DNA from: an uncultured Erysipelotrichaceae bacterium
GTDB taxonomy: Bacteria > Bacillota_I > Bacilli_A > RFN20 > CAG-826
DNA: 64,000 bases
Assembly: GCA_902800355.1 (NCBI GenBank)
Contig: CADCEE010000005.1
Span: 12,465 to 76,464 of the forward strand
Direction: 5' to 3'
Each line of letters starts with the position of its first letter. The stretch's first letter is position 1. A program made the translations under genes and the position numbers. Shown in pieces: positions 4,790-58,575 of the stretch. Below the pieces are notes generated by a model. The model made no database searches, was not told the DNA's origin, and saw nothing but the letters and a program-made list of their open reading frames with translations.

Positions 4790-4948
4790 TTAAGGTCGAA
4801 ACACGGAGGTCAGCTCGCTAACCTTGATAAGTCGCTAGTCGCAATATATATGAAACGAGAGATCAATAAATGTATATGAAGGCGAGCCCTTCCGTTTAAG
4901 AGTAATAGGAAGAATTTTAACGAATAGATAAAAGAGGAGGTGTCTAAA

Positions 4949-13885: not shown

Positions 13886-14015
13886 AAGGTCGCTGACGAA
13901 ATAAATTGGTCGCGGCAGTATAAATATGAAGAGGGCGGGCGAAAGCCCATATATTTTTTGCCCTATGGAATCCCATCGGTTGCCGAGGGGAACAAAACAA
14001 AGAAAGGAGAAAACT

Positions 14016-15449
14016 ATGAAGAAAAGAGTAGTGGCTTATGCGAGAGTTTCTTCCAAATCTAGATCACAAGCACATTCCTTGGAATTTCAAAAATCATACT
14101 GGAATGAAAAATTAGCAACTGATCCTGATTATGAATTTCTCGGTTTATATGCCGACCACGGAATAAGTGGTAAATCCATTAAGAACAGGACTCAGTTCCT
14201 ACGAATGATTCATAAAGCAATGGATGGAGGAATAGATATTATCTTTACAAAATCAGTGCAAAGGTTTGCTCGTAATACGGAAGAGTTGTTATCAATTGTC
14301 CATGAATTAAGAGATATCGGTGTTGCTGTTGTATTTGAAAAAGAAAATATTAATACCTTACAAATAACTAGTGACTTGTTTCTTACGGTTGCCGCCGCTG
14401 TGGCAGAAGAAGATTTATCTAGATACAGGGCTAATGTTGTTTGGAGCATTGAAGAATCATATAAAAGAGGAAAACCAATTTCTTTTGGCGGAAGAGTTTT
14501 TGGATATCACGTTGGAAAAAACTGTGCTTTGACCATCAATGAGGAAGAAGCTGAAGTGGTTAGAAAAATCTTTGAACTATACATTAGTGGATATAGTCTC
14601 AATGACCTTAAGAATTACTTAGATTCCAAAGGAATTAAGTCACCTATGGGAAGTGTATGGTCAAATTCGACATTAAGTGGAATTCTTCGAAATGAAAAAT
14701 ATATAGGCGATGTGATGCTTCATAAAGAAATTCAGGTAAATGGTGTTAGGAAAGTGATTAGAAATAAAGAAGTGAATCAGTATTATATCGAAAATCATCA
14801 CCCTGCAATTATTACAAAAGAAGTTTTCAAAAAAGCACAGGAAGTAGCTGAATCAAGAAGAAATCCATTATTGGTTGGATTAGTAAACAAAGAATATCCT
14901 TTTACAGCGTTAATTGAATGTTCCTGTTGTCATAAGAAGTTCCATCATAAATTCAATCATTCGAGTTCTAATTATTCTGCTCCTTGGTATCGTTGCTCAT
15001 CTACTAGAGATAAATGTACTTCAACAGCGATTAGAGAAGACATTTTAGAAGAACTCTTTATTGAGGCATTTAATGAGTTTGTTAGAAATAGATATCAAGG
15101 TGTTGAAGAACAAGATTATCAATCCCAAATAGATGCTAAAGAAAAAGAAGAACAGGAATTAACTAAACTATACGCTAATGGTTGGATATCTAAAGAAGAT
15201 TATGATTCCGAACTCAACCAAATCTTAGAAACAAAAAACAAGCTGTTGAAAGAACAAAGTTCTTTAAAATCGAGATTAATAACTGATAGAGATTATAAAG
15301 AACTTAAAGTGTTTGACCCAACAAAGGTAACAAAGTTCCTTAAAAAATGCATTGTCAAAAGAGATACCATCGAATTTCATTTCTACAACGGTGTAATCAT
15401 TTCAAAAAAGGTAATAAATAGGAGGATTTATCATTATGCCACAAACTAA
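14016..15449 (+). CDS. Large serine recombinase (resolvase/invertase catalytic domain + recombinase domain + zinc ribbon), first of a tandem pair
   Basis: AAAGGAGA RBS then ATG 14016. N-terminus VVAYARVSSKSRSQ (catalytic Ser motif), C-rich region (CSCCHKKFHH...CSSTRDKC), C-terminal coiled coil. Track start 13926 is an upstream in-frame extension lacking an RBS. Confidence 0.8.
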   Translation: MKKRVVAYARVSSKSRSQAHSLEFQKSYWNEKLATDPDYEFLGLYADHGISGKSIKNRTQFLRMIHKAMDGGIDIIFTKSVQRFARNTEELLSIVHELRDIGVAVVFEKENINTLQITSDLFLTVAAAVAEEDLSRYRANVVWSIEESYKRGKPISFGGRVFGYHVGKNCALTINEEEAEVVRKIFELYISGYSLNDLKNYLDSKGIKSPMGSVWSNSTLSGILRNEKYIGDVMLHKEIQVNGVRKVIRNKEVNQYYIENHHPAIITKEVFKKAQEVAESRRNPLLVGLVNKEYPFTALIECSCCHKKFHHKFNHSSSNYSAPWYRCSSTRDKCTSTAIREDILEELFIEAFNEFVRNRYQGVEEQDYQSQIDAKEKEEQELTKLYANGWISKEDYDSELNQILETKNKLLKEQSSLKSRLITDRDYKELKVFDPTKVTKFLKKCIVKRDTIEFHFYNGVIISKKVINRRIYHYATN

Positions 15450-17040
15450 TGTCAGGATTATCAAAGCAAATCCGTTTAATTTTAAAAACGAGGCCACTGA
15501 ATCACGCTTATTAAAAGTAGCGGCATATGCACGTGTCTCCACTGATAGCGAAGAACAAGAAGACTCATTCGATAGGCAAGTAAGTTACTACAGCAATTAT
15601 ATCCAATCGAATCCTGAATGGGAGTTTGTGAAAGTCTATAGTGATCCAGGTATTTCAGGAACAAAGGCAGAATCTAGGCCTGGCTTTATGGAAATGATGG
15701 AAGACTGTAGAAAAGGAAAGATTAATAGAATATTAGTTAAATCAATAGCTCGTTTTGCTAGAAATACTGTTGATGCTCTCAAGTATATTAGAGAACTAAA
15801 AGAACTTGGTATCAGCGTTTATTTTGAAGCACACAATCTTGATACTGGCACAAGTGGTGGCGAAGTCCTATTAACAATTCTTGCTGCAACTGCTGAGGAA
15901 GAATCTAGAACAATTTCTAAGAATATCAAATGGACATATCAAAAGAAATTCGAAAGAGGGGAGTTTGTTTTTAATTACTCTCAATTCCTCGGGTTGAAGA
16001 AAACTGATGAAGGATTTGTAATTGTTGAGGAAGAAGCTGAAACTGTACGAAGAATTTATAGAGAATTCTTAAGTGGTGGATCATATCAACAAATTGCAAA
16101 AGGATTAAACGAAGACAATGTAAAAACACCTAGTGGAAGGGGAAGGTTTTCTGCCGCTGTTATTAAAAGCATCTTAACAAATGAAAAGTACTATGGTGCT
16201 TGTATAATGGGGAAAACATTTAAACCTGATGTTTTATCTAAAAAGAGATACAAAAATACAGGTCAAGTTGATTCCTACTATGTAGAAAACGCACTTCCTC
16301 AAATTGTTTCAAAAGAAACTTGGGATAGGGTTCAATTTGAAATTAAAGAAAGAGATGAAAATAGGGGTGTATCAAATAAAGTTTATGGCAAATTCTCTAG
16401 TGCATATCCTTTTTCCAAAATTATTAGATGTGGTTGTTGTGGTTCCTTATTTGTTCGTAATAAGAATATGAGGGGTCATGGTAAAAATATACCTTGTTGG
16501 ACTTGTTCGAGTCATTTTTATCACAGTGATTCATGTCCTCAAAAAGGAATCTCTGAAGAATCAATAAAGAGAGCATTTGTAACTGTTATTAACGAAATAG
16601 CTGAAAATGTTGTAGAACTTAAAAAGGTTGTTGCTGATTCAATTAGAGAATCTATGATGAATACCCCAAAATTTACACCTGAACAACTCGAAGAAGAAAT
16701 CATTGATTTACAGGAAGATATGTTGGAACTCCATAAAAGAAAAACAAAAGGTTTAGTATCTCCAAAAGATTATGCAGAACAGGGACAAGCTCTCGCAGAT
16801 AAAATAGACTTAAAGAAGAGATTGCTTGATGAAATTAAATCCAAGATGATTCTTACCGAACTTACGGCAAAACGAATGACCGAGATTGAAGAGGTTCTTT
16901 CTACTCTTAAGCCTACCGATGACTTTAACGAAATTATATTTAGAAAAATGGTGGAGTCTATCACCGTAAACGATAGAACAAAGTTAACATTCAAATTCAA
17001 GGTTGGCATCGAAAAAACAATAGAAACCGAAATAAAATGA
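15436..17040 (+). CDS. Large serine recombinase, second of a tandem pair (paralogue of the upstream gene)
   Basis: GGAGGA 15421-15426 then ATG 15436, overlapping the upstream gene by 14 nt. AAYARVSTDSEEQ catalytic motif, Cys cluster (CGCCGS...CWTCSSH...C), long C-terminal coiled coil. Confidence 0.8.
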   Translation: MPQTNVRIIKANPFNFKNEATESRLLKVAAYARVSTDSEEQEDSFDRQVSYYSNYIQSNPEWEFVKVYSDPGISGTKAESRPGFMEMMEDCRKGKINRILVKSIARFARNTVDALKYIRELKELGISVYFEAHNLDTGTSGGEVLLTILAATAEEESRTISKNIKWTYQKKFERGEFVFNYSQFLGLKKTDEGFVIVEEEAETVRRIYREFLSGGSYQQIAKGLNEDNVKTPSGRGRFSAAVIKSILTNEKYYGACIMGKTFKPDVLSKKRYKNTGQVDSYYVENALPQIVSKETWDRVQFEIKERDENRGVSNKVYGKFSSAYPFSKIIRCGCCGSLFVRNKNMRGHGKNIPCWTCSSHFYHSDSCPQKGISEESIKRAFVTVINEIAENVVELKKVVADSIRESMMNTPKFTPEQLEEEIIDLQEDMLELHKRKTKGLVSPKDYAEQGQALADKIDLKKRLLDEIKSKMILTELTAKRMTEIEEVLSTLKPTDDFNEIIFRKMVESITVNDRTKLTFKFKVGIEKTIETEIK

Positions 17041-19582: not shown

Positions 19583-20176
19583 ATGAGTTGGGATACTACT
19601 GAAAAACGAATCAAATGCCCTTGTGGTAGGGGCGAAATAGTTCAGGTGAACAAAGATAATGATTGGGGTCAATACATCGAAGGAACTCCTGTTATCGAAT
19701 GCCCTGAATGTGCTAAGAAATATAAGCTTGTATCAAATACACATTCGTCATATAAGCCTGGTCACGGCAGTTGGACTAACTATTACTTAGTCCCAAAGGG
19801 ACTCAAACCCGATAAAAAATACAAGAACTCCTTTGAATACGTGAATGAGTATGAATTGGCCAAAAAGGATTTTGCTGAATACCTAATAGTGGATTATCCA
19901 AAGAGCGTTTTGGAAGAAGTTTACACAGAACTTTTGAATGCAACCTCGGTTTCGGCTTTGAGAAGTGCTGCGAGAAGAATTGCAAAGGATAAGAAGAGAT
20001 ACACGGGATCCTGCAAGATAAAGGAACTAACCCCATTAGTCAAAAAAGCCATCGATGGATTTGATTCCTATAATGGCAATTGGCAACAAAGGGATGATGA
20101 AGAACAGGAAAATATCAAGGCAGAGGAAGAGTATCTAGCCAAGGTTCGCAAGGAAGGAATTTTGCTTGATTTATAG
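19583..20176 (+). CDS. Zinc-ribbon protein of unknown function, translationally coupled to the GmrSD-like gene
   Basis: ATG 2 nt after the upstream stop (TAATATG). N-terminal CPCG-x17-CPEC zinc ribbon; acidic C-terminus; no recognisable catalytic motif. Confidence 0.5.
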   Translation: MSWDTTEKRIKCPCGRGEIVQVNKDNDWGQYIEGTPVIECPECAKKYKLVSNTHSSYKPGHGSWTNYYLVPKGLKPDKKYKNSFEYVNEYELAKKDFAEYLIVDYPKSVLEEVYTELLNATSVSALRSAARRIAKDKKRYTGSCKIKELTPLVKKAIDGFDSYNGNWQQRDDEEQENIKAEEEYLAKVRKEGILLDL

Positions 20177-20195
20177 CAAAAAATCCGTTCGATTC

Positions 20196-20320
20196 CTCCC
20201 ATCCCCTTTAAAATGTATCAATGTTGTAGTGCAACCCCTTTCAAAAAGGACTAAATGTATCAATATTGTTGTACTAACACAACTTGATTAAATAGGATTG
20301 ATACAAAGTCAGTCCTTTTT
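20196..20320 (+). repeat. Structured intergenic repeat element, copy A (nested stems; ends in a terminator-like stem plus T-run)
   Basis: AAAAAGGACT...AGTCCTTTTTT outer stem, TGTATCAAT/ATTGATACA inner stem, GTTGT-ACTAAC-ACAAC hairpin. The motifs ATGTATCAA and TTAAATAGGATTGAT...GTCAGTCCTTTT recur at 21613-21680. Confidence 0.5.
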
Positions 20321-20352
20321 TCTTGCTTAAAAAAGTCTAATATATTATAGAA

Positions 20353-20374
20353 TAAGACTATGTCTTATGATAAG
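20353..20374 (+). promoter_or_regulatory. Interlocking palindromes (operator-like) immediately upstream of the 125-aa ORF
   Basis: TAAGAC-TAT-GTCTTA (6-3-6) overlapping CTTAT-G-ATAAG (5-1-5), 9 nt before ATG 20383. Confidence 0.35.
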
Positions 20375-20382
20375 ATATAAGC

Positions 20383-20760
20383 ATGACAAAAAAGAAAAGA
20401 CTAACTCATGATCAAAAGATAATTAAAGCTTTAGAAAAAATCAAAACTCCTATTGTTGATGAAATTAGGAATTTGTCTATCTTTTTTAAAGCGAGGTCAC
20501 GAAGCAACGAGACCGGAATGGAACATGTAGCTAAGAATTATCATGGTTTGGATCCAAGCGATATTGAATTATTAATAGATTGTATTAAAAATCCTATTGA
20601 ACATATTAAAGATAGAAGATATCCAAAAACATACTGTTATTACCACGCTAGAAAGCATGACAAAAATCATTACATCAAAGTTGTTGTTAAGGTTGAAAAC
20701 GATTTTAAAACAGGGTATATATCTTCGATATTCATTACATCAAAAATTAAAAATAAGTAG
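20383..20760 (+). CDS. Small basic hypothetical protein (125 aa)
   Basis: Lys-rich (pI clearly basic), no motif I can assign; sits between the repeat element and the vat-like gene. Confidence 0.4.
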   Translation: MTKKKRLTHDQKIIKALEKIKTPIVDEIRNLSIFFKARSRSNETGMEHVAKNYHGLDPSDIELLIDCIKNPIEHIKDRRYPKTYCYYHARKHDKNHYIKVVVKVENDFKTGYISSIFITSKIKNK

Positions 20761-20890
20761 TGGAATTAACCGATTACTATGATAAAATAACTGTGTCAAA
20801 GGTGGAAAGTCGCTGTGCGACCACGACGCATTTCTTCGGAAATGGATTGACTAGCGATTCAGGATGCAGCGCCCTGATTGACAAATAATC

Positions 20891-20915
20891 ACATCTCATT
20901 GAGATGTTTTCTTTT
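20891..20915 (+). terminator. Intrinsic terminator/attenuator hairpin 24 nt upstream of the vat-like start codon
   Basis: ACATCTC-ATT-GAGATGT perfect stem followed by TTTTCTTTT; lies at the 3' end of an unusually GC-rich ~130 nt leader (20775-20880). Confidence 0.55.
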
Positions 20916-20938
20916 ATGTTTTTTGCTATCATATTTAT

Positions 20939-21583
20939 ATGGAAAAAGAGATGAAACCAATTTATCCGAACTCACAATTTAAGTCTTTTTGTTATATCAA
21001 AAGCGTAGTTACTAGACCAAATATTATTGTGGGCGATTATTCCTATTATGATGATAGTGAGGACGGCCCGGAATCTTTTGAAAAACACGTAACCCATCAT
21101 TATGACTTTATGGGCGATAAGCTTATTATTGGTAAGTTTGTTGCAATAGCAAGAGGCGTGGAGTTTGTGATGAATGGTGCTAATCACATGTTAGATTGTT
21201 TAACAACTTATCCTTTTGAAATCATTGATGAATTCAAAGGTCTATCTAGACCATTCGGAGATAGAGGAAACCGTGGAGATACAGTTGTAGGTAACGATGT
21301 CTGGATTGGTCAAAACGCCACAATATTACCAGGAGTTCATATTGGTGATGGCGCGATTATAGGCGCTAATGCAGTAGTAGCAAAAGATGTTCCTCCGTAT
21401 GCAGTTGTTGTGGGCAATCCTGCTATTATTAAGAAATATAGATTTGATAAAGAAACAATCAATCTTCTTTTAGAACTCAAATGGTGGGACAAAGATATTG
21501 AAGAAATCAAAAAACTAATCCCATTACTTACTGGTGACTTAGCAAATAATAAAAAAGAACTTAAAAAAATATTGAAGAAATAG
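20939..21583 (+). CDS. vat: Vat-family xenobiotic (streptogramin A-type) O-acetyltransferase, hexapeptide-repeat
   Basis: Strong family-level similarity to Vat/SatA-type enzymes: [84 protein letters not shown]. Confidence 0.8.
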
Positions 21584-21599
21584 TGTTCCAAAGTCTTTC

Positions 21600-21685
21600 A
21601 GTTTGTTCCACATGTATCAAAACACTGAAACCCTGTCAATTTAGTTAAATAGGATTGATGCTGATGTGTCAGTCCTTTTATTTGA
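21600..21685 (+). repeat. Structured intergenic repeat element, copy B (degenerate)
   Basis: Shares ATGTATCAA and TTAAATAGGATTGAT-N8-GTCAGTCCTTTT with copy A; sits between vat and the metal permease gene. Confidence 0.45.
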
Positions 21686-21722
21686 ATAAAAGAACATTAA
21701 GTTATATTATATAAAGCGGACT

Positions 21723-22586
21723 ATGACTTGGGACATTGTAAAAGACGTATTATTAGATGCATTAAAAGATAGCGCGCTAGTGCTAGCCTTTGTTTTTGCA
21801 TTTCATCTTTTGCTATCTTTTATCGAAGATAAGCTATCTAAGTTTTTAACCAAAAATCAAAAGTTATCTCCTTTACTAGGTTCTTTATTTGGAATTATTC
21901 CACAGTGCGGAACTTCAGTGTTAGCCGGTGATTTATATATTAAAAGATATATTACCTTTGGTACTTTAGTAGCGGTCTTCTTATCTTGCAGTGATGAAGC
22001 TATCTTAGTGCTACTTACTAAACCTAGCGAGAAAACTATTATGGTTTTACCACTTATCGCTAGTAAGTTTGTTATTGGTTTTGTTATTGGCTATCTCATT
22101 GATTTAATTTATCGAAAACAAGAAATAAATAAGCCAGAAGAAGAGTTAACTGATGTTATTTGTCATGAACATCATCATGAACACACAAAAATTCATAAAC
22201 ATTTAATTCATCCACTTGTTCACTCTTTGGAAATATTTGCCTATGTTTTAGTCATTAATGTTTCTTTAGGGCTTATTATCGCTAGTGTGGGTGAAGATAA
22301 CTTTAAGAGCTTCTTAACATCTAATCGTTATTTAACTCCAATATATGCTTCTTTAGTGGGCCTTATCCCTAACTGTGCCTCTAGTGTTTTACTATCTGAA
22401 TTATATCTTAGTGGTGGATTATCTTTTGGAGCCTTACTTGCTGGATTATTAGTAAATTCAGGCTTAGGTATGATGGTTTTATTAAAGAGCAAGACTGCAC
22501 TTAAAAAAGCGGGATTAGTGGTATTAATTTGTTTAATTACTGCAATTTCGTTTGGCTATATTTTCTGTGCAATAATTGGGTTTTAA
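21723..22586 (+). CDS. Putative metal-ion permease with internal two-fold duplication and His-rich cytoplasmic loop
   Basis: Two homologous halves (IIPQCGTSVLAGDLY... and LIPNCASSVLLSELY...) separated by HEHHHEHTKIHKH; ~10 predicted TM segments. Confidence 0.5.
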   Translation: MTWDIVKDVLLDALKDSALVLAFVFAFHLLLSFIEDKLSKFLTKNQKLSPLLGSLFGIIPQCGTSVLAGDLYIKRYITFGTLVAVFLSCSDEAILVLLTKPSEKTIMVLPLIASKFVIGFVIGYLIDLIYRKQEINKPEEELTDVICHEHHHEHTKIHKHLIHPLVHSLEIFAYVLVINVSLGLIIASVGEDNFKSFLTSNRYLTPIYASLVGLIPNCASSVLLSELYLSGGLSFGALLAGLLVNSGLGMMVLLKSKTALKKAGLVVLICLITAISFGYIFCAIIGF

Positions 22587-24725: not shown

Positions 24726-24800
24726 GGACCCATAGCTCAAAGGAAGAGCCCTCCGCTCATAACGGAGTTGTTGTAGTGTCGGGATCTACTGGGTCCACCA
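24726..24800 (+). tRNA. tRNA-Met/Ile2 (anticodon CAT) candidate with atypical T-arm
   Basis: Acceptor GGACCCA/TGGGTCC, D-stem GCTC/GAGC, anticodon stem CTCCG/CGGAG with loop CTCATAA, 3' CCA. T-arm reads GTAGT-GTCGGGA-TCTAC (one T.T mismatch, G at position 54). Confidence 0.6.
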
Positions 24801-24804
24801 AAAT

Positions 24805-24895
24805 GGAGATTTACCCAAGTGGTTGAAGGGGTCGGTCTTGAAAACCGATAGGAGGTGCAAGCCTCGCTAGGGTTCAAATCCCTAAATCTCCGCCA
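24805..24895 (+). tRNA. tRNA-Ser (anticodon TGA)
   Basis: GGAGATT...AATCTCC acceptor, anticodon loop CTTGAAA, long variable arm, T-loop GGTTCAAATCC, CCA encoded. Confidence 0.8.
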
Positions 24896-57861: not shown

Positions 57862-58575
57862 ATGTATCAAGAAAAATTTGTCGTAGGTAAAAGTGAAATC
57901 GATATTAACGGGGAAATTAAAATTTCTCGATTAATGTTACACGCTCAAGATGTCGCTAGTGAACACGCTAGAAGATTAAAAATTGACCGCGATGTTTTAA
58001 TGAAAGACAATAATATCTGGGTAGTGGTTAGAACTGACATTAAAATTAATCGTTTACCTAAACTTAAAGAGAAATATTTTTTATCTACTCATCCTGGAGA
58101 AACTAAGGGATTTATGTTTCCTAGATTTTTCCAAGTCTATGATAAACATAAAAACTTATTAGTGAGCATTTCATCAACCTGGGTCATTGTCAATTTTGAT
58201 ACACGTAAAATTGCCTTACATCCATTAAAGGATATGACTTTACCTTTTGAAAATGATCCTAGTGATTTAGAGCTTCCTTCTAAAATAAATGATGAAGCCT
58301 CTAATATTGTTTTAGAACGTTTAACTAAAGAAAGTGAATTAGATGTTAATTTACATATTAATAACACATTCTATTACGATTATGTTTTAGATGTTCATGA
58401 TGAATCTTTCTATAAAGAAAATCGTGTTAGTCGATTAACTCTTAACTACGAAAAAGAAATTATTCACCCTAGTAAGATTGTTATCTTTTCTAACAAAAGT
58501 AACCCTGAAGTTATTGTGGGTAAAGTTAACGATAACATTTCTTTTGCTTCAAAGGTTGAATATACAAAAAGATAA
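57862..58575 (+). CDS. Acyl-ACP thioesterase family protein
   Basis: 237 aa with the double hot-dog acyl-ACP thioesterase pattern (N-terminal IDINGEIKISRLM..., second half YDYVLDVH). Confidence 0.55.
   Translation: MYQEKFVVGKSEIDINGEIKISRLMLHAQDVASEHARRLKIDRDVLMKDNNIWVVVRTDIKINRLPKLKEKYFLSTHPGETKGFMFPRFFQVYDKHKNLLVSISSTWVIVNFDTRKIALHPLKDMTLPFENDPSDLELPSKINDEASNIVLERLTKESELDVNLHINNTFYYDYVLDVHDESFYKENRVSRLTLNYEKEIIHPSKIVIFSNKSNPEVIVGKVNDNISFASKVEYTKR

Follow-up and report, generated by a model that had tools for sequence, protein, structure and literature searches.

Two copies of a symmetric, probably serine-recombinase-type site around a Vat-like gene cassette beside a prophage in an uncultured Erysipelotrichaceae bacterium

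Analysis of a repeat pair around a Vat-like acetyltransferase gene, within a 64,000-nucleotide stretch of DNA (the window), supported the view that the gene lies in a cassette bounded by att sequences. The two repeats, copies A and B, are probably two instances of one ~48-base, two-fold symmetric recombination site. Copy A is likely to be the right junction (attR) of a ~42-kb prophage with two large serine recombinases, and we have good confidence that the acetyltransferase cassette belongs, as a single unit, to an array of exchangeable genes present in many gut and rumen bacteria. The combined reading of site, prophage attR and recombinase-less cassette carries the same confidence. The locus contains the following features.

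13926..15449, + strand: large serine recombinase 1 of the prophage, 507 aa (Pfam Resolvase, Recombinase and Zn_ribbon_recom)
15436..17040, + strand: large serine recombinase 2 of the prophage, 534 aa (Pfam Resolvase, Recombinase and Zn_ribbon_recom)
20177..20279, + strand: phage arm (P arm) at the prophage right junction (83% identity to the end of phage contig L015, then divergence)
20280..20281, + strand: CA, presumed crossover dinucleotide of copy A (sole junction sequence common to the arms)
20282..20322, + strand: copy A right arm (terminator scan, fold, same arm after tRNA-Glu in relatives)
20323..20382, + strand: leader common to copies A and B (A/B alignments)
20383..20760, + strand: small basic ORF, 125 aa, putative BECR/PBECR-like (RelE/YoeB-type) RNase fold (predicted structure)
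20780..20915, + strand: candidate small RNA gene R2 (conserved copies in relatives)
20939..21583, + strand: Vat-like streptogramin A O-acetyltransferase, 214 aa (NCBIfam Vat_ABCDEFH, Pfam Hexapep)
21583..21636, + strand: cassette 3′ arm, the P arm of copy B (conserved after vat in six named loci)
21637..21638, + strand: CA, presumed crossover dinucleotide of copy B (same register as copy A)
21639..21685, + strand: copy B right arm (terminator scan, fold)
21682..21710, + strand: promoter-like TTGAAT-17-TATTAT ahead of ArsP_2 (consensus scan, 9/12 matches)
21723..22586, + strand: ArsP_2 family membrane protein (Pfam ArsP_2)

All repeat strings quoted by the sequence-only reading were found in the window. 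TTAAATAGGATTGAT was present exactly at 20288-20302 and 21645-21659, with no further match at up to two mismatches, and exact copies of GTCAGTCCTTTT lay at 20308-20319 and 21668-21679. The motif ATGTATCAA, said to occur three times, was confirmed at 20213, 20255 and 21612, but a fourth, unrelated copy lies at 57862. The repeat also extends further than first described. The best local alignment paired 20280-20366 with 21636-21729 and spanned the hairpin, the -10-like box and the ATG; its score of 57 compared with 18.6 ± 2.7 for shuffles (maximum 39, z = 14) and with a best score of 30 among 328 other windows. An nhmmer profile of the site family matched only copies A and B in the 64-kb window. 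Neither repeat, nor R2, gave an Rfam match at the gathering threshold or at E ≤ 10, and in phage and plasmid collections blastn found nothing similar to the region beyond distant vat matches.

Both copies share one layout: GTATCAA, 16 nt, CA, 16 nt, TTGATAC, with GTATCAA at -23 to -17 and TTGATAC at +17 to +23 around the CA. The site thus shows the imperfect two-fold symmetry over ~40-50 bp that characterizes large-serine-recombinase att sites. In copy A, the half-site AAATGTATCAATRTTGT is duplicated in the phage arm (20211-20230 and 20253-20272) and GTATCAA occupies 20257-20263. Beyond the CA come a 13-nt spacer and the hairpin AGGATTGATAC-AAA-GTCAGTCCT, with its stem at 20294-20316 and a T-run behind it; TTGATAC (20298-20304) is the mirror of GTATCAA. 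The leader that follows holds a -10-like TATATTATA box and a 6-codon mini-ORF (20360-20380, MSYDKI*) resembling the ArsP_2 start, MTWDIV. In copy B, the P arm begins within the vat stop codon and carries direct repeats GTGTTCCA (21583-21590) and TTGTTCCA (21603-21610) as well as GTATCAA (21614-21620). Here the CA lies 16 nt after GTATCAA and 13 nt before the hairpin AGGATTGATGC-TGAT-GTGTCAGTCCT (stem 21651-21676), which contains TTGATGC at 21655-21661 and ends in a T-run. This right arm, with the ArsP_2 leader, was also found in L006 and L007. The promoter-like match within that leader is weak, being no commoner than in shuffles.

A metagenome scan recovered more than 120 such sites, located either behind cassette arms or behind tRNAs, the latter covering 12 amino-acid identities. 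For register statistics we used 127 unique sites, 56 of tRNA type and 71 of non-tRNA type. CA stood exactly 13 nt ahead of the hairpin in 46/56 and 52/71 of these, respectively, and GTATYAN, the mirror of TTGATAC, exactly 38 nt ahead of it in 38/71 non-tRNA-type sites; in the other 56 of the 127, the tRNA T-loop stands in for the left half-site. Identical element sequence was found after different tRNAs. The arm comparison placed (C)CA as the sole junction sequence common to tRNA, phage and cassette arms, with right arms diverging from the first base after CA. Judged from where similarity breaks, partner sites therefore share only a 2-bp crossover, as att sites of this kind do, and these breakpoints point to CA as the likely place of exchange. 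The repeats appear to be recombination sites, and the unit between them has different neighbours elsewhere, with similarity breaking at one dinucleotide. The 13-nt spacer of the small-ORF arm differs among the window, L006 and L014, which indicates that some exchange or gene conversion within the arms occurs as well.

The probable target was recognized in relatives. In four related genomes (L006, L009, L010 and L014), tRNA-Asn and tRNA-Glu(UUC) lie immediately left of the same hairpin arm, and the right half-site directly abuts the CCA end of tRNA-Glu(UUC), the final two bases of that end corresponding to the CA of copy A. Beyond this arm the relatives carry hypervariable accessory genes and then ArsP_2, the first conserved chromosomal gene right of the array; in L006-L011 and L073 this gene anchors the array on the right. 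The tRNA remains complete as far as CCA and has only CA in common with the element at the junction. The P arms resemble the tRNA 3′ part to ~45%, the left arms spanning 26 nt, the length of the segment from T-stem to CCA. We had considered these left arms to be decayed tRNA-Glu halves and dropped the idea, the arm belonging to the phage with only CA shared.

The same weak resemblance and the location at a tRNA are what a classical tyrosine-integrase tRNA island, with repeats descended from duplicates of the tRNA-Glu 3′ part, would predict. Such an island would show a recombinase overlap of at least 7 nt, whereas junction identity is 2-3 nt and no direct repeat duplicates 7 nt or more of the tRNA 3′ part. 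Moreover, the tRNA keeps even its last base, the ~33 nt between the half-sites exceed what a tyrosine core would span, and no Phage_integrase family recurs in the Pfam census of 248 flanking ORFs: tyrosine integrases were absent from the families with at least two members and from the window region. We regard this explanation as scarcely credible. In the same census Resolvase was the commonest left-side family, and serine recombinases were the only recurrent recombinase of the metagenome scan, although one lay within the fetched flank at just 4 to 5 of ~120 loci; in L111, L124 and L135 it sits directly left of the P arm. In our limited full-text set, we met no account of serine-recombinase insertion at the CCA end of tRNAs.

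The sequence-only reading had made copy A the left flank of the cassette. This holds for its right half, which from 20282 would be the first arm of a resident array, but the left half, up to 20279, appears to be the end of the prophage. The two recombinase genes, which overlap by 14 nt, are encoded by the integrating element itself, as expected for an att site. The identical gene pair adjoins the same phage end in L029-L035, where an identical phage arm is joined to different flanks; counting the window, this end meets eight different right flanks directly after ...CTAACACA (ending ...ACACA). A 76% identical homologue of recombinase 2 was found in IMG/VR contig L015 together with the same right-end sequence, L015 sharing 20149-20284 and diverging beyond. 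Homology to L006, a relative that lacks the prophage, does not begin before 20284, and 20280 is the point at which metagenome contig L001 breaks. The phage is present in rumen samples, for example ERZ27280671 and ERZ28614624.

For a related phage, two partners of such an exchange could be compared. L135 has the order serine recombinase, P arm, CA, P′ arm, and its sequence starting right behind the CA matches L042 at 98.9% and L112 at 98.7% identity. The L042 site follows tRNA-Ser(CGA) and precedes phage replication genes, and that of L112 follows a tRNA 3′ end cut by the contig edge. We identify L135 versus L042 and L112, on sequence grounds, as an attP/attL pair, with tRNA-type junctions of more than one kind. 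The window phage showed attR alone, its attL and the tRNA-Glu of this genome lying beyond the window; IMG/VR contained no relative of its 197-aa phage protein and no match to the exact phage arm, so no attP of this phage.

Copy A had also been described as a set of nested stems. The complementarities listed do exist, but the minimum-free-energy fold is a local hairpin, AGGATTGAT/GTCAGTCCT, followed by a T-run, in preference to the outer stem AAAAAGGACT/AGTCCTTTTT. As an RNA structure the nesting did not survive: the outer stem is confined to the phage arm and missing from copy B and the tRNA-linked copies, and the left strand of the middle stem TGTATCAAT/ATTGATACA is replaced by the tRNA T-loop in 56/127 sites. 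TGTATCAAT/ATTGATACA is the inverted half-site pair of a DNA recombination site, not an RNA stem.

At the same time, the right half-site supplies the 5′ strand of a predicted terminator hairpin. Predicted terminators at 20294-20316 and 21651-21676 each consist of a G+C-containing stem-loop with a T-run downstream of a gene; a third follows R2, and the terminator scan returned 7 sites against 0.7 expected. Folding z-scores were ~-2.8, and the stem was preserved through compensatory changes (8 variants) with (T/C)GATAC invariant. These hairpins would terminate transcription. The alternative of reused terminators was half right: the right half-site is also a predicted intrinsic terminator. As a complete explanation, in which the repeats would be intrinsic terminators or a structured regulatory RNA at operon boundaries with no recombination role, it is disfavoured, and we give it a very low probability. 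It leaves unexplained the conserved left motif with its fixed distance, the CA register, a hairpin 13 nt past the CCA of tRNAs of 12 amino-acid identities, an identical element after different tRNAs, and the synteny breaks; in addition, the window's other tRNAs (Ser ×4 and Gly) lack the hairpin, and no Rfam family matches.

The unit between the two CA dinucleotides is 1,357 bp long, has no recombinase, and contains the small PBECR/RelE-like protein, the candidate small RNA and the Vat-like acetyltransferase. The whole 1.36-kb unit recurs in L006 and L156 beside other neighbours, and vat alone occurs in further genomes, again with different neighbours; in L030 the vat unit measures 0.76 kb. Across 7 loci, conservation of the vat 3′ arm extends to ...CTGCCA, beyond which five different right arms occur; loci with this arm include L006, L007, L014, L030, L107 and L156. 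The vat leader arm is preceded by the phage arm, by tRNA-Glu or by one of at least three other arms. The cassettes are very compact, the hairpin, 30 nt and the ATG at one end and a stop codon within the P arm at the other. This supported the proposal of an inserted cassette bracketed by duplicated att sequence, with similarity breaking at CA. The companion idea of a target-site duplication was rejected, the junctions having only the dinucleotide CA in common. The 1,357-bp unit itself looks like a fusion of two smaller cassettes: the R2/vat junction (~20917) has no site and would therefore have arisen by deletion rather than by site-specific recombination.

That such deletions occur is one argument for a different history, in which the cassettes are cargo-bearing right-end remnants of successive decayed tRNA prophages. 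Internal deletions would drive the decay, the remnants would be shuffled by homologous recombination across the 40-90 nt over which right arms are similar, and only intact phages would use the site enzymatically. Right arms are similar far beyond the site, and phage right ends bear like cargo beside the P arm (GmrSD and HTH in the window and L044). Furthermore, most cassette junctions consist of two P-type half-sites. Serine integrases normally do not pair two attP-like sites, and to our knowledge those of phages such as Bxb1 and phiC31 do not recombine them with each other. Against decay, the exchange points fall on CA and the arms are different from the very next base onward, the cassettes are extremely compact, as in L030, and both half-site motifs are retained at internal junctions. 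We consider the decay history unlikely.

Under site-specific exchange, the site would serve elements that enter tRNA genes at their CCA end, the target here being tRNA-Glu(UUC), which would end ...GGTCACCA left of the window. Copy B would be the junction of the 3′ arm of the recombinase-less cassette with the arm ahead of ArsP_2. The recombinases would cut at CA, and cassettes may have been placed, and may still be movable at present, in trans by such enzymes. With two P-type halves at most junctions, excision would therefore need a less directional TnpX/TndX-type enzyme or a different pairing. The right half-site would double as an intrinsic terminator with a -10-like box next to it, so that each insertion would end the upstream transcript (tRNA or previous cassette) and may drive the next gene. 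More tentatively, and at somewhat less than even chances, these arrays could be an integron-like cassette platform of gut and rumen Firmicutes, run by phage- or element-encoded large serine recombinases instead of IntI, in which compact recombinase-less cassettes are captured, stacked and reshuffled at tRNA CCA ends. A cassette would then consist of a terminator-hairpin arm, 1-3 genes for resistance or defence, and a 3′ arm in which GTATCAA is accompanied by accessory direct repeats. The universal T-loop would be read as one half-site, making any tRNA gene a potential docking point.

Large-serine-recombinase att sites are known from the temperate phages Bxb1 and phiC31 and the A118/LI integrase. 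Like them, the present sites measure ~48 bp, have imperfect two-fold symmetry with outer motifs ~17-23 bp from the centre, and limit partner identity to a non-palindromic dinucleotide; a recombinase gene lies near one prophage end, and an attP/attL pair was recovered. Unlike them, the target is the CCA end of many tRNA identities, with the T-loop replacing one outer motif, and there are paired recombinase genes, extra direct repeats in the P arms and internal junctions with two P-type halves. SCCmec and pseudo-SCC islands of staphylococci insert at rlmH through CcrA/CcrB recombinases. They share with our locus a side-by-side pair of large serine recombinase genes, a single conserved gene whose 3′ end receives the insertions, tandem arrays split by direct repeats, units without a recombinase that presumably moved in trans, and resistance cargo. 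The present arrays differ from SCCmec in their tRNA target, phage-borne recombinases, much smaller units (0.8-2.5 kb, often one gene) and hosts, which are rumen and gut Bacilli/Erysipelotrichaceae MAGs.

Integron cassettes are likewise compact, mostly single-gene, recombinase-less units in arrays, with a terminal recombination site beginning at the stop codon and the same gene at varied array positions. However, no IntI-type tyrosine recombinase appeared among the recurrent families of the flanking-ORF census or in the window region, and the site consensus lacks attC architecture (R″/L″-L′/R′, GTTRRRY core), its hairpin being a terminator with a T-run. The site is double-stranded, symmetric and serine-type, and units bring their own terminator and -10-like box where integron cassettes use a common Pc promoter. 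Tn4451/Tn5397-type transposons (TnpX/TndX) cross over at GA and carry their own recombinase. The resemblance lies in a large serine recombinase, a 2-bp crossover flanking the element and an excised-circle joint that resembles the target; their weak directionality control is what cassette movement between like sites would need. Unlike the present elements, they do not target tRNA ends or build arrays, and the dinucleotide here is CA.

In tycheposons and in CIME/ICE accretion, successive tRNA integration pushes older elements inward, leaving, as here, degraded or recombinase-less units with adaptive or defence cargo between repeated att sequences (bioRxiv 10.1101/2020.12.28.424599; PMC5704250). 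There, the repeats copy part of the tRNA and arise mostly through tyrosine recombinases (910/937 tycheposons) (same sources), whereas our locus shows no tRNA duplication, its repeat being a symmetric site carried by the element.

If site-specific exchange holds, a Vat-like gene and many defence or toxin genes (GmrSD, TIR, Fic, AbiEii-like, TNT) would travel in small units that phages common in livestock and human gut metagenomes could move between strains, a route of resistance and defence spread unflagged by current annotation. The tRNA T-loop/CCA end would be a natural, near-universal landing pad for serine recombinases, of interest for their target choice and for genome engineering. The site would also be the reason why metagenome contigs of these organisms break here.

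Assignment of the acetyltransferase to the Vat family stood as Vat-like: NCBIfam Vat_ABCDEFH was the best family at 257.5 bits, below its cut-off of 300, followed by CatB at 163 bits, with Pfam Hexapep also matched. An exact look-up of the 214-aa protein returned no record, as gene callers took the alternative start at 20951, which gives 210 aa. The 125-aa ORF had no Pfam, PHROG or NCBIfam match, and only 72 close homologues. Its predicted structure (pLDDT 89) best matched YoeB/RelE/HigB in the PDB (E 0.03-0.15, TM 0.35-0.55) and phage MuF C-terminal/PolyVal proteins in BFVD (E 1.4e-3, probability 1.0), suggesting the putative RNase fold. This ORF and a 159-aa ORF that also precedes R2 were not called homologues, the NYHGL motif alone being common to both.

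R2 consists of an extended -10 box, TGATAAAAT (20780-20788), a ~115-nt body and a terminator (20891-20907) with a T-run. A 51-aa minus-strand ORF across it was rejected, being broken by 1-, 3- and 4-nt indels in two copies. Nine full-length copies at 77-96% identity were found in relatives, with a consensus of four hairpins and little covariation. In L010 the 117-nt core (20794-20910) reaches 99% identity, against just 73% for ArsP_2.

Two repeat copies, A (~20196-20320) and B (~21600-21685), flank a small ORF and a vat gene. Every string quoted for them in the sequence-only reading was found where it had been placed, and the similarity it claimed holds, although it extends further than the reading gave. 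The best local alignment (20280-20366 with 21636-21729) scored 57, compared with 18.6 +/- 2.7 for shuffles (shuffle maximum 39, z = 14) and a top score of 30 among 328 other windows of the 64-kb sequence. A site-family profile search of the window detected copies A and B and no others. The outer stem proposed for copy A was absent from minimum-free-energy folds, in which local hairpins form instead.

Features of the window, in order
1 to ~20279: prophage (portal, capsid, tape-measure-size, tail; then recombinases, HTH protein, GmrSD-type nuclease, 197-aa protein)
13926-15449 and 15436-17040: two overlapping large serine recombinases
20294-20316: copy A hairpin, AGGATTGATAC-AAA-GTCAGTCCT, T-run directly after
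20383-20760, +: basic ORF, 125 aa
20780-20915, +: R2, candidate small RNA gene, conserved and non-coding (extended -10 box TGATAAAAT, ~115-nt body, four hairpins, own terminator)
after R2: Vat-like acetyltransferase
21651-21676: copy B hairpin, AGGATTGATGC-TGAT-GTGTCAGTCCT, T-run directly after
21723-22586, +: ArsP_2, the first chromosomal gene, followed by CDP-alcohol phosphatidyltransferase, LPG-synthase-like protein and tRNAs
24726-24797, +: Rfam tRNA call (45.7 bits; no ARAGORN call) directly 5′ of tRNA-Ser(UGA) at 24805

Comparison with other loci placed the prophage end within copy A. Homology to the prophage-free relative L006 begins at 20284, 5 nt past the end of its tRNA-Glu, and metagenome contig L001, 100% identical to the window, breaks at 20280. 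IMG/VR contig L015, with recombinases 76% identical, matched 20149-20284 at 83% and diverged beyond. Seven loci (L029-L035) whose 197-aa protein and recombinases are identical to those of the window always carry the phage end ...AAATGTATCAATATTGTTGTACTAACACA, followed by seven flanks each unlike that of the window, 3/7 with other hairpin sequences. These breakpoints therefore define 20177-20279 as the phage arm, with host or array sequence beginning just past the CA at 20280-20281, the counterpart of the final two bases of the tRNA CCA. Copy A is the attR of the prophage. The window opens with an ORF (114-1589, +) for an LRR_5 protein and not for the terminase; TerL, a C5 methylase, DNA polymerase A and a D5-type primase are encoded further left, outside it (loci L025-L028). 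The phage is common: one of its proteins occurs in 52 assembly-collection blocks, mainly on contigs of 20-50 kb.

Scanning species-representative genomes with ArsP_2 identified rumen MAGs labelled Bacillales, Bacilli or Erysipelotrichaceae. In four of these (L006, L009, L010, L014), tRNA-Asn and tRNA-Glu(UUC) adjoin the left side of the hairpin arm. Gene content from this arm to ArsP_2 differs genome by genome, and repeat copies lie between most gene blocks.

Arrays between hairpin arm and ArsP_2 in relatives
L006: small ORF, R2, vat, then 495-aa secreted protein
L007: hydrolase, Fic, vat
L009: 159-aa ORF and R2; MerR, flavodoxin, hydrolase; GNAT and TIR
L010: 159-aa ORF and R2; HTH protein; protease
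L014: vat, then small ORF and R2 (order reversed relative to the window)

An extra site copy lies 8 kb right of ArsP_2 in L009 (18680-20861), followed by an opposite-strand large serine recombinase gene, which suggests that this genome has a second docking point.

Both window copies and those of relatives share a common plan, with GTATCAA 23-17 nt left of CA and TTGATAC, the 5′ strand of the hairpin, 17-23 nt right of it. In tRNA-linked copies, the T-loop GTTCGAA stands in place of the left motif, 1 base nearer CA. CA is the sole junction sequence common to all left arms, and right arms diverge from the first base past it. Two-fold symmetry over 48 bp combined with a shared core of 2 bp marks a serine-recombinase site; it does not fit tyrosine integrases, for which an identical overlap of 6-8 bp is required.

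This plan recurred widely. A metagenome scan with the hairpin recovered at least 120 stretches, the samples including rumen, human gut and biogas, and all loci examined, including the metagenome matches listed, comprised 127 unique sites. Among the matches listed, 56/127 had a tRNA T-loop in the left arm, 46 of these 56 with the CCA end exactly 13 nt 5′ of the hairpin; the non-tRNA sites had CA in the same register in 52/71 cases and GTATYAN at the exact mirror position in 38/71. Again among the matches listed, the linked tRNAs covered 12 amino-acid identities (listed as Glu, Cys, Ser, Val, Thr, Gln, Pro, Leu, His, Trp, Arg and Leu isoacceptors).

When right arms were recovered via the left arm alone, stem sequences varied and complementarity was kept (AGCATTGATA/TATCAGTGCT; GCTCTAATA/TATTAGGGC; CAGGATC/GGTCCTG; GGTCTGATAC/GTATCAGTCC; GTGCTAAT/ATTAGCAC), with (T/C)GATAC or TAATAC at constant distance from CA. 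By its sequence, the hairpin fits a double role as recombinase half-site and predicted intrinsic terminator. Since elements insert just past the final tRNA base, the tRNA transcript would gain a new, predicted terminator from them.

Locus L135 carries, in order, a 602-aa serine recombinase, two ORFs, a P arm (the element side left of CA), CA and the hairpin arm. Starting at the base that follows CA, it matches L042 at 98.9% identity and L112 at 98.7%. In L042 the arm comes after tRNA-Ser(CGA) and precedes phage replication genes; in L112 the tRNA 3′ end before it is cut at the contig edge. By these alignments, L135 and L042/L112 form an attP/attL pair, and the match also shows that the hairpin arm arrives with the element. 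Half-sites are duplicated in the P arms of L135 (reverse strand, ~4805-4865; ACGTATYATATTCGTT, 37 nt apart) and of the window phage (AAATGTATCAATRTTGT, 20211-20230 and 20253-20272, 42 nt apart). L111 and L124, too, have a serine recombinase as the immediate left neighbour of the arm. Pfam families were tallied for 98 ORFs on the left of non-tRNA sites and 150 on the right of all sites, among the matches listed: Resolvase ranked first on the left, and no tyrosine integrase family had two members. Cargo included Hexapep/Vat-like proteins (8 ORFs), ABC transporters, radical SAM, Fic, AbiEii-like ATPases, MatE, restriction enzymes and GmrSD.

From CA to CA, the window unit spans 20282-21638 (1,357 bp) and contains no recombinase. 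Its Vat-like acetyltransferase scores 257 bits against NCBIfam Vat_ABCDEFH, below the cut-off of 300. The same unit follows tRNA-Glu in L006, and in L156 (a 733-kb contig, next to FeoAB genes) its neighbours are a GNAT cassette on one side and a different hairpin on the other. Alone, vat makes up a unit of 0.76 kb, which adjoins the phage in L030 and L034 and is also found after tRNA-Glu (L014, L107) and after other arms (L066, L071, L075, L143). Its 3′ arm is kept in seven loci through ...CTGCCA, followed by five different right arms. In the window and L006, the R2/vat boundary (~20917) has no site and, relative to L030, the R2 terminator replaces the vat-arm hairpin; the window unit therefore looks like two cassettes fused by deletion.

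Arms after cassette genes start within the stop codon (TAGTGTTCC...) and carry, ahead of GTATCAA, 2-3 direct repeats of an 8-11-mer, ~22 nt apart (window 21583-21610; left arms of L053, L057, L072, L076, L077, L081, L129 and L146). The repeats are near-identical within one arm and unlike between arms, even with the same cargo gene: vat arms carry GTGTTCCA, GTGTTCGG or GTGTAGCG. The pattern is a concerted one, and the repeats may be accessory-protein binding sites.

From their compactness, intact half-sites and many contexts, we infer that recombinase-less units are still mobile; the main rival explanation is decay of prophage ends combined with homologous recombination between similar arms. 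For mobile units, movement would proceed by excision between two like sites and re-insertion, for which TnpX/TndX-type enzymes, or CcrAB on pseudo-SCC elements, are models. An incoming P-CA-P′ element would recombine with the tRNA end plus its downstream sequence, whatever that is. The new left junction, tRNA-CA-P′, would again offer a good right half-site, so that later elements could insert and older ones would be pushed rightward. The prophage would then be the most recent arrival in this genome and copy B an older junction.

The 125-aa protein has no family match; it is one of a narrow group of 72 related proteins, all without family annotation. Its confident structure model (pLDDT 89) has a predicted fold that resembles YoeB/RelE/HigB toxins and phage MuF/PolyVal C-terminal nuclease domains. 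R2, without an Rfam match, has nine copies in relatives, 77-96% identical over full length, always 3′ of the 125-aa or 159-aa ORF except in L030. For L010, identity is only 73% in ArsP_2, 96% in R2 over 131 nt and 99% over a 117-nt core of R2. The protein and R2 are a possible toxin/RNA pair. Upstream, 3′ of the copy A hairpin and a -10-like box, a 6-codon ORF (20360-20380, MSYDKI*) resembles the ArsP_2 start (21723-21743, MTWDIV); the small-ORF cassette arm and ArsP_2 arm thus seemingly have common ancestry beyond the recombination site.

All components are of known kinds: serine-recombinase att sites, SCC-like composite islands, integron-like cassette arrays and tandem accretion at a tRNA. 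The last is shared with tycheposons and CIMEs (bioRxiv 10.1101/2020.12.28.424599; PMC5704250). Our literature search found no description of the combination seen here: a serine-type site with its centre at the CCA end of a tRNA, a T-loop that replaces one half-site, terminator arms carried by the element, and cassettes of a single gene with accessory direct repeats. The text of a survey of large serine recombinases does not mention tRNA (PMC10083194). Metagenome contig ends very frequently lie within 100-200 nt of a site (L001, L002, L008 and many of L036-L155); evidently, assemblies of site-bearing organisms break at array junctions.
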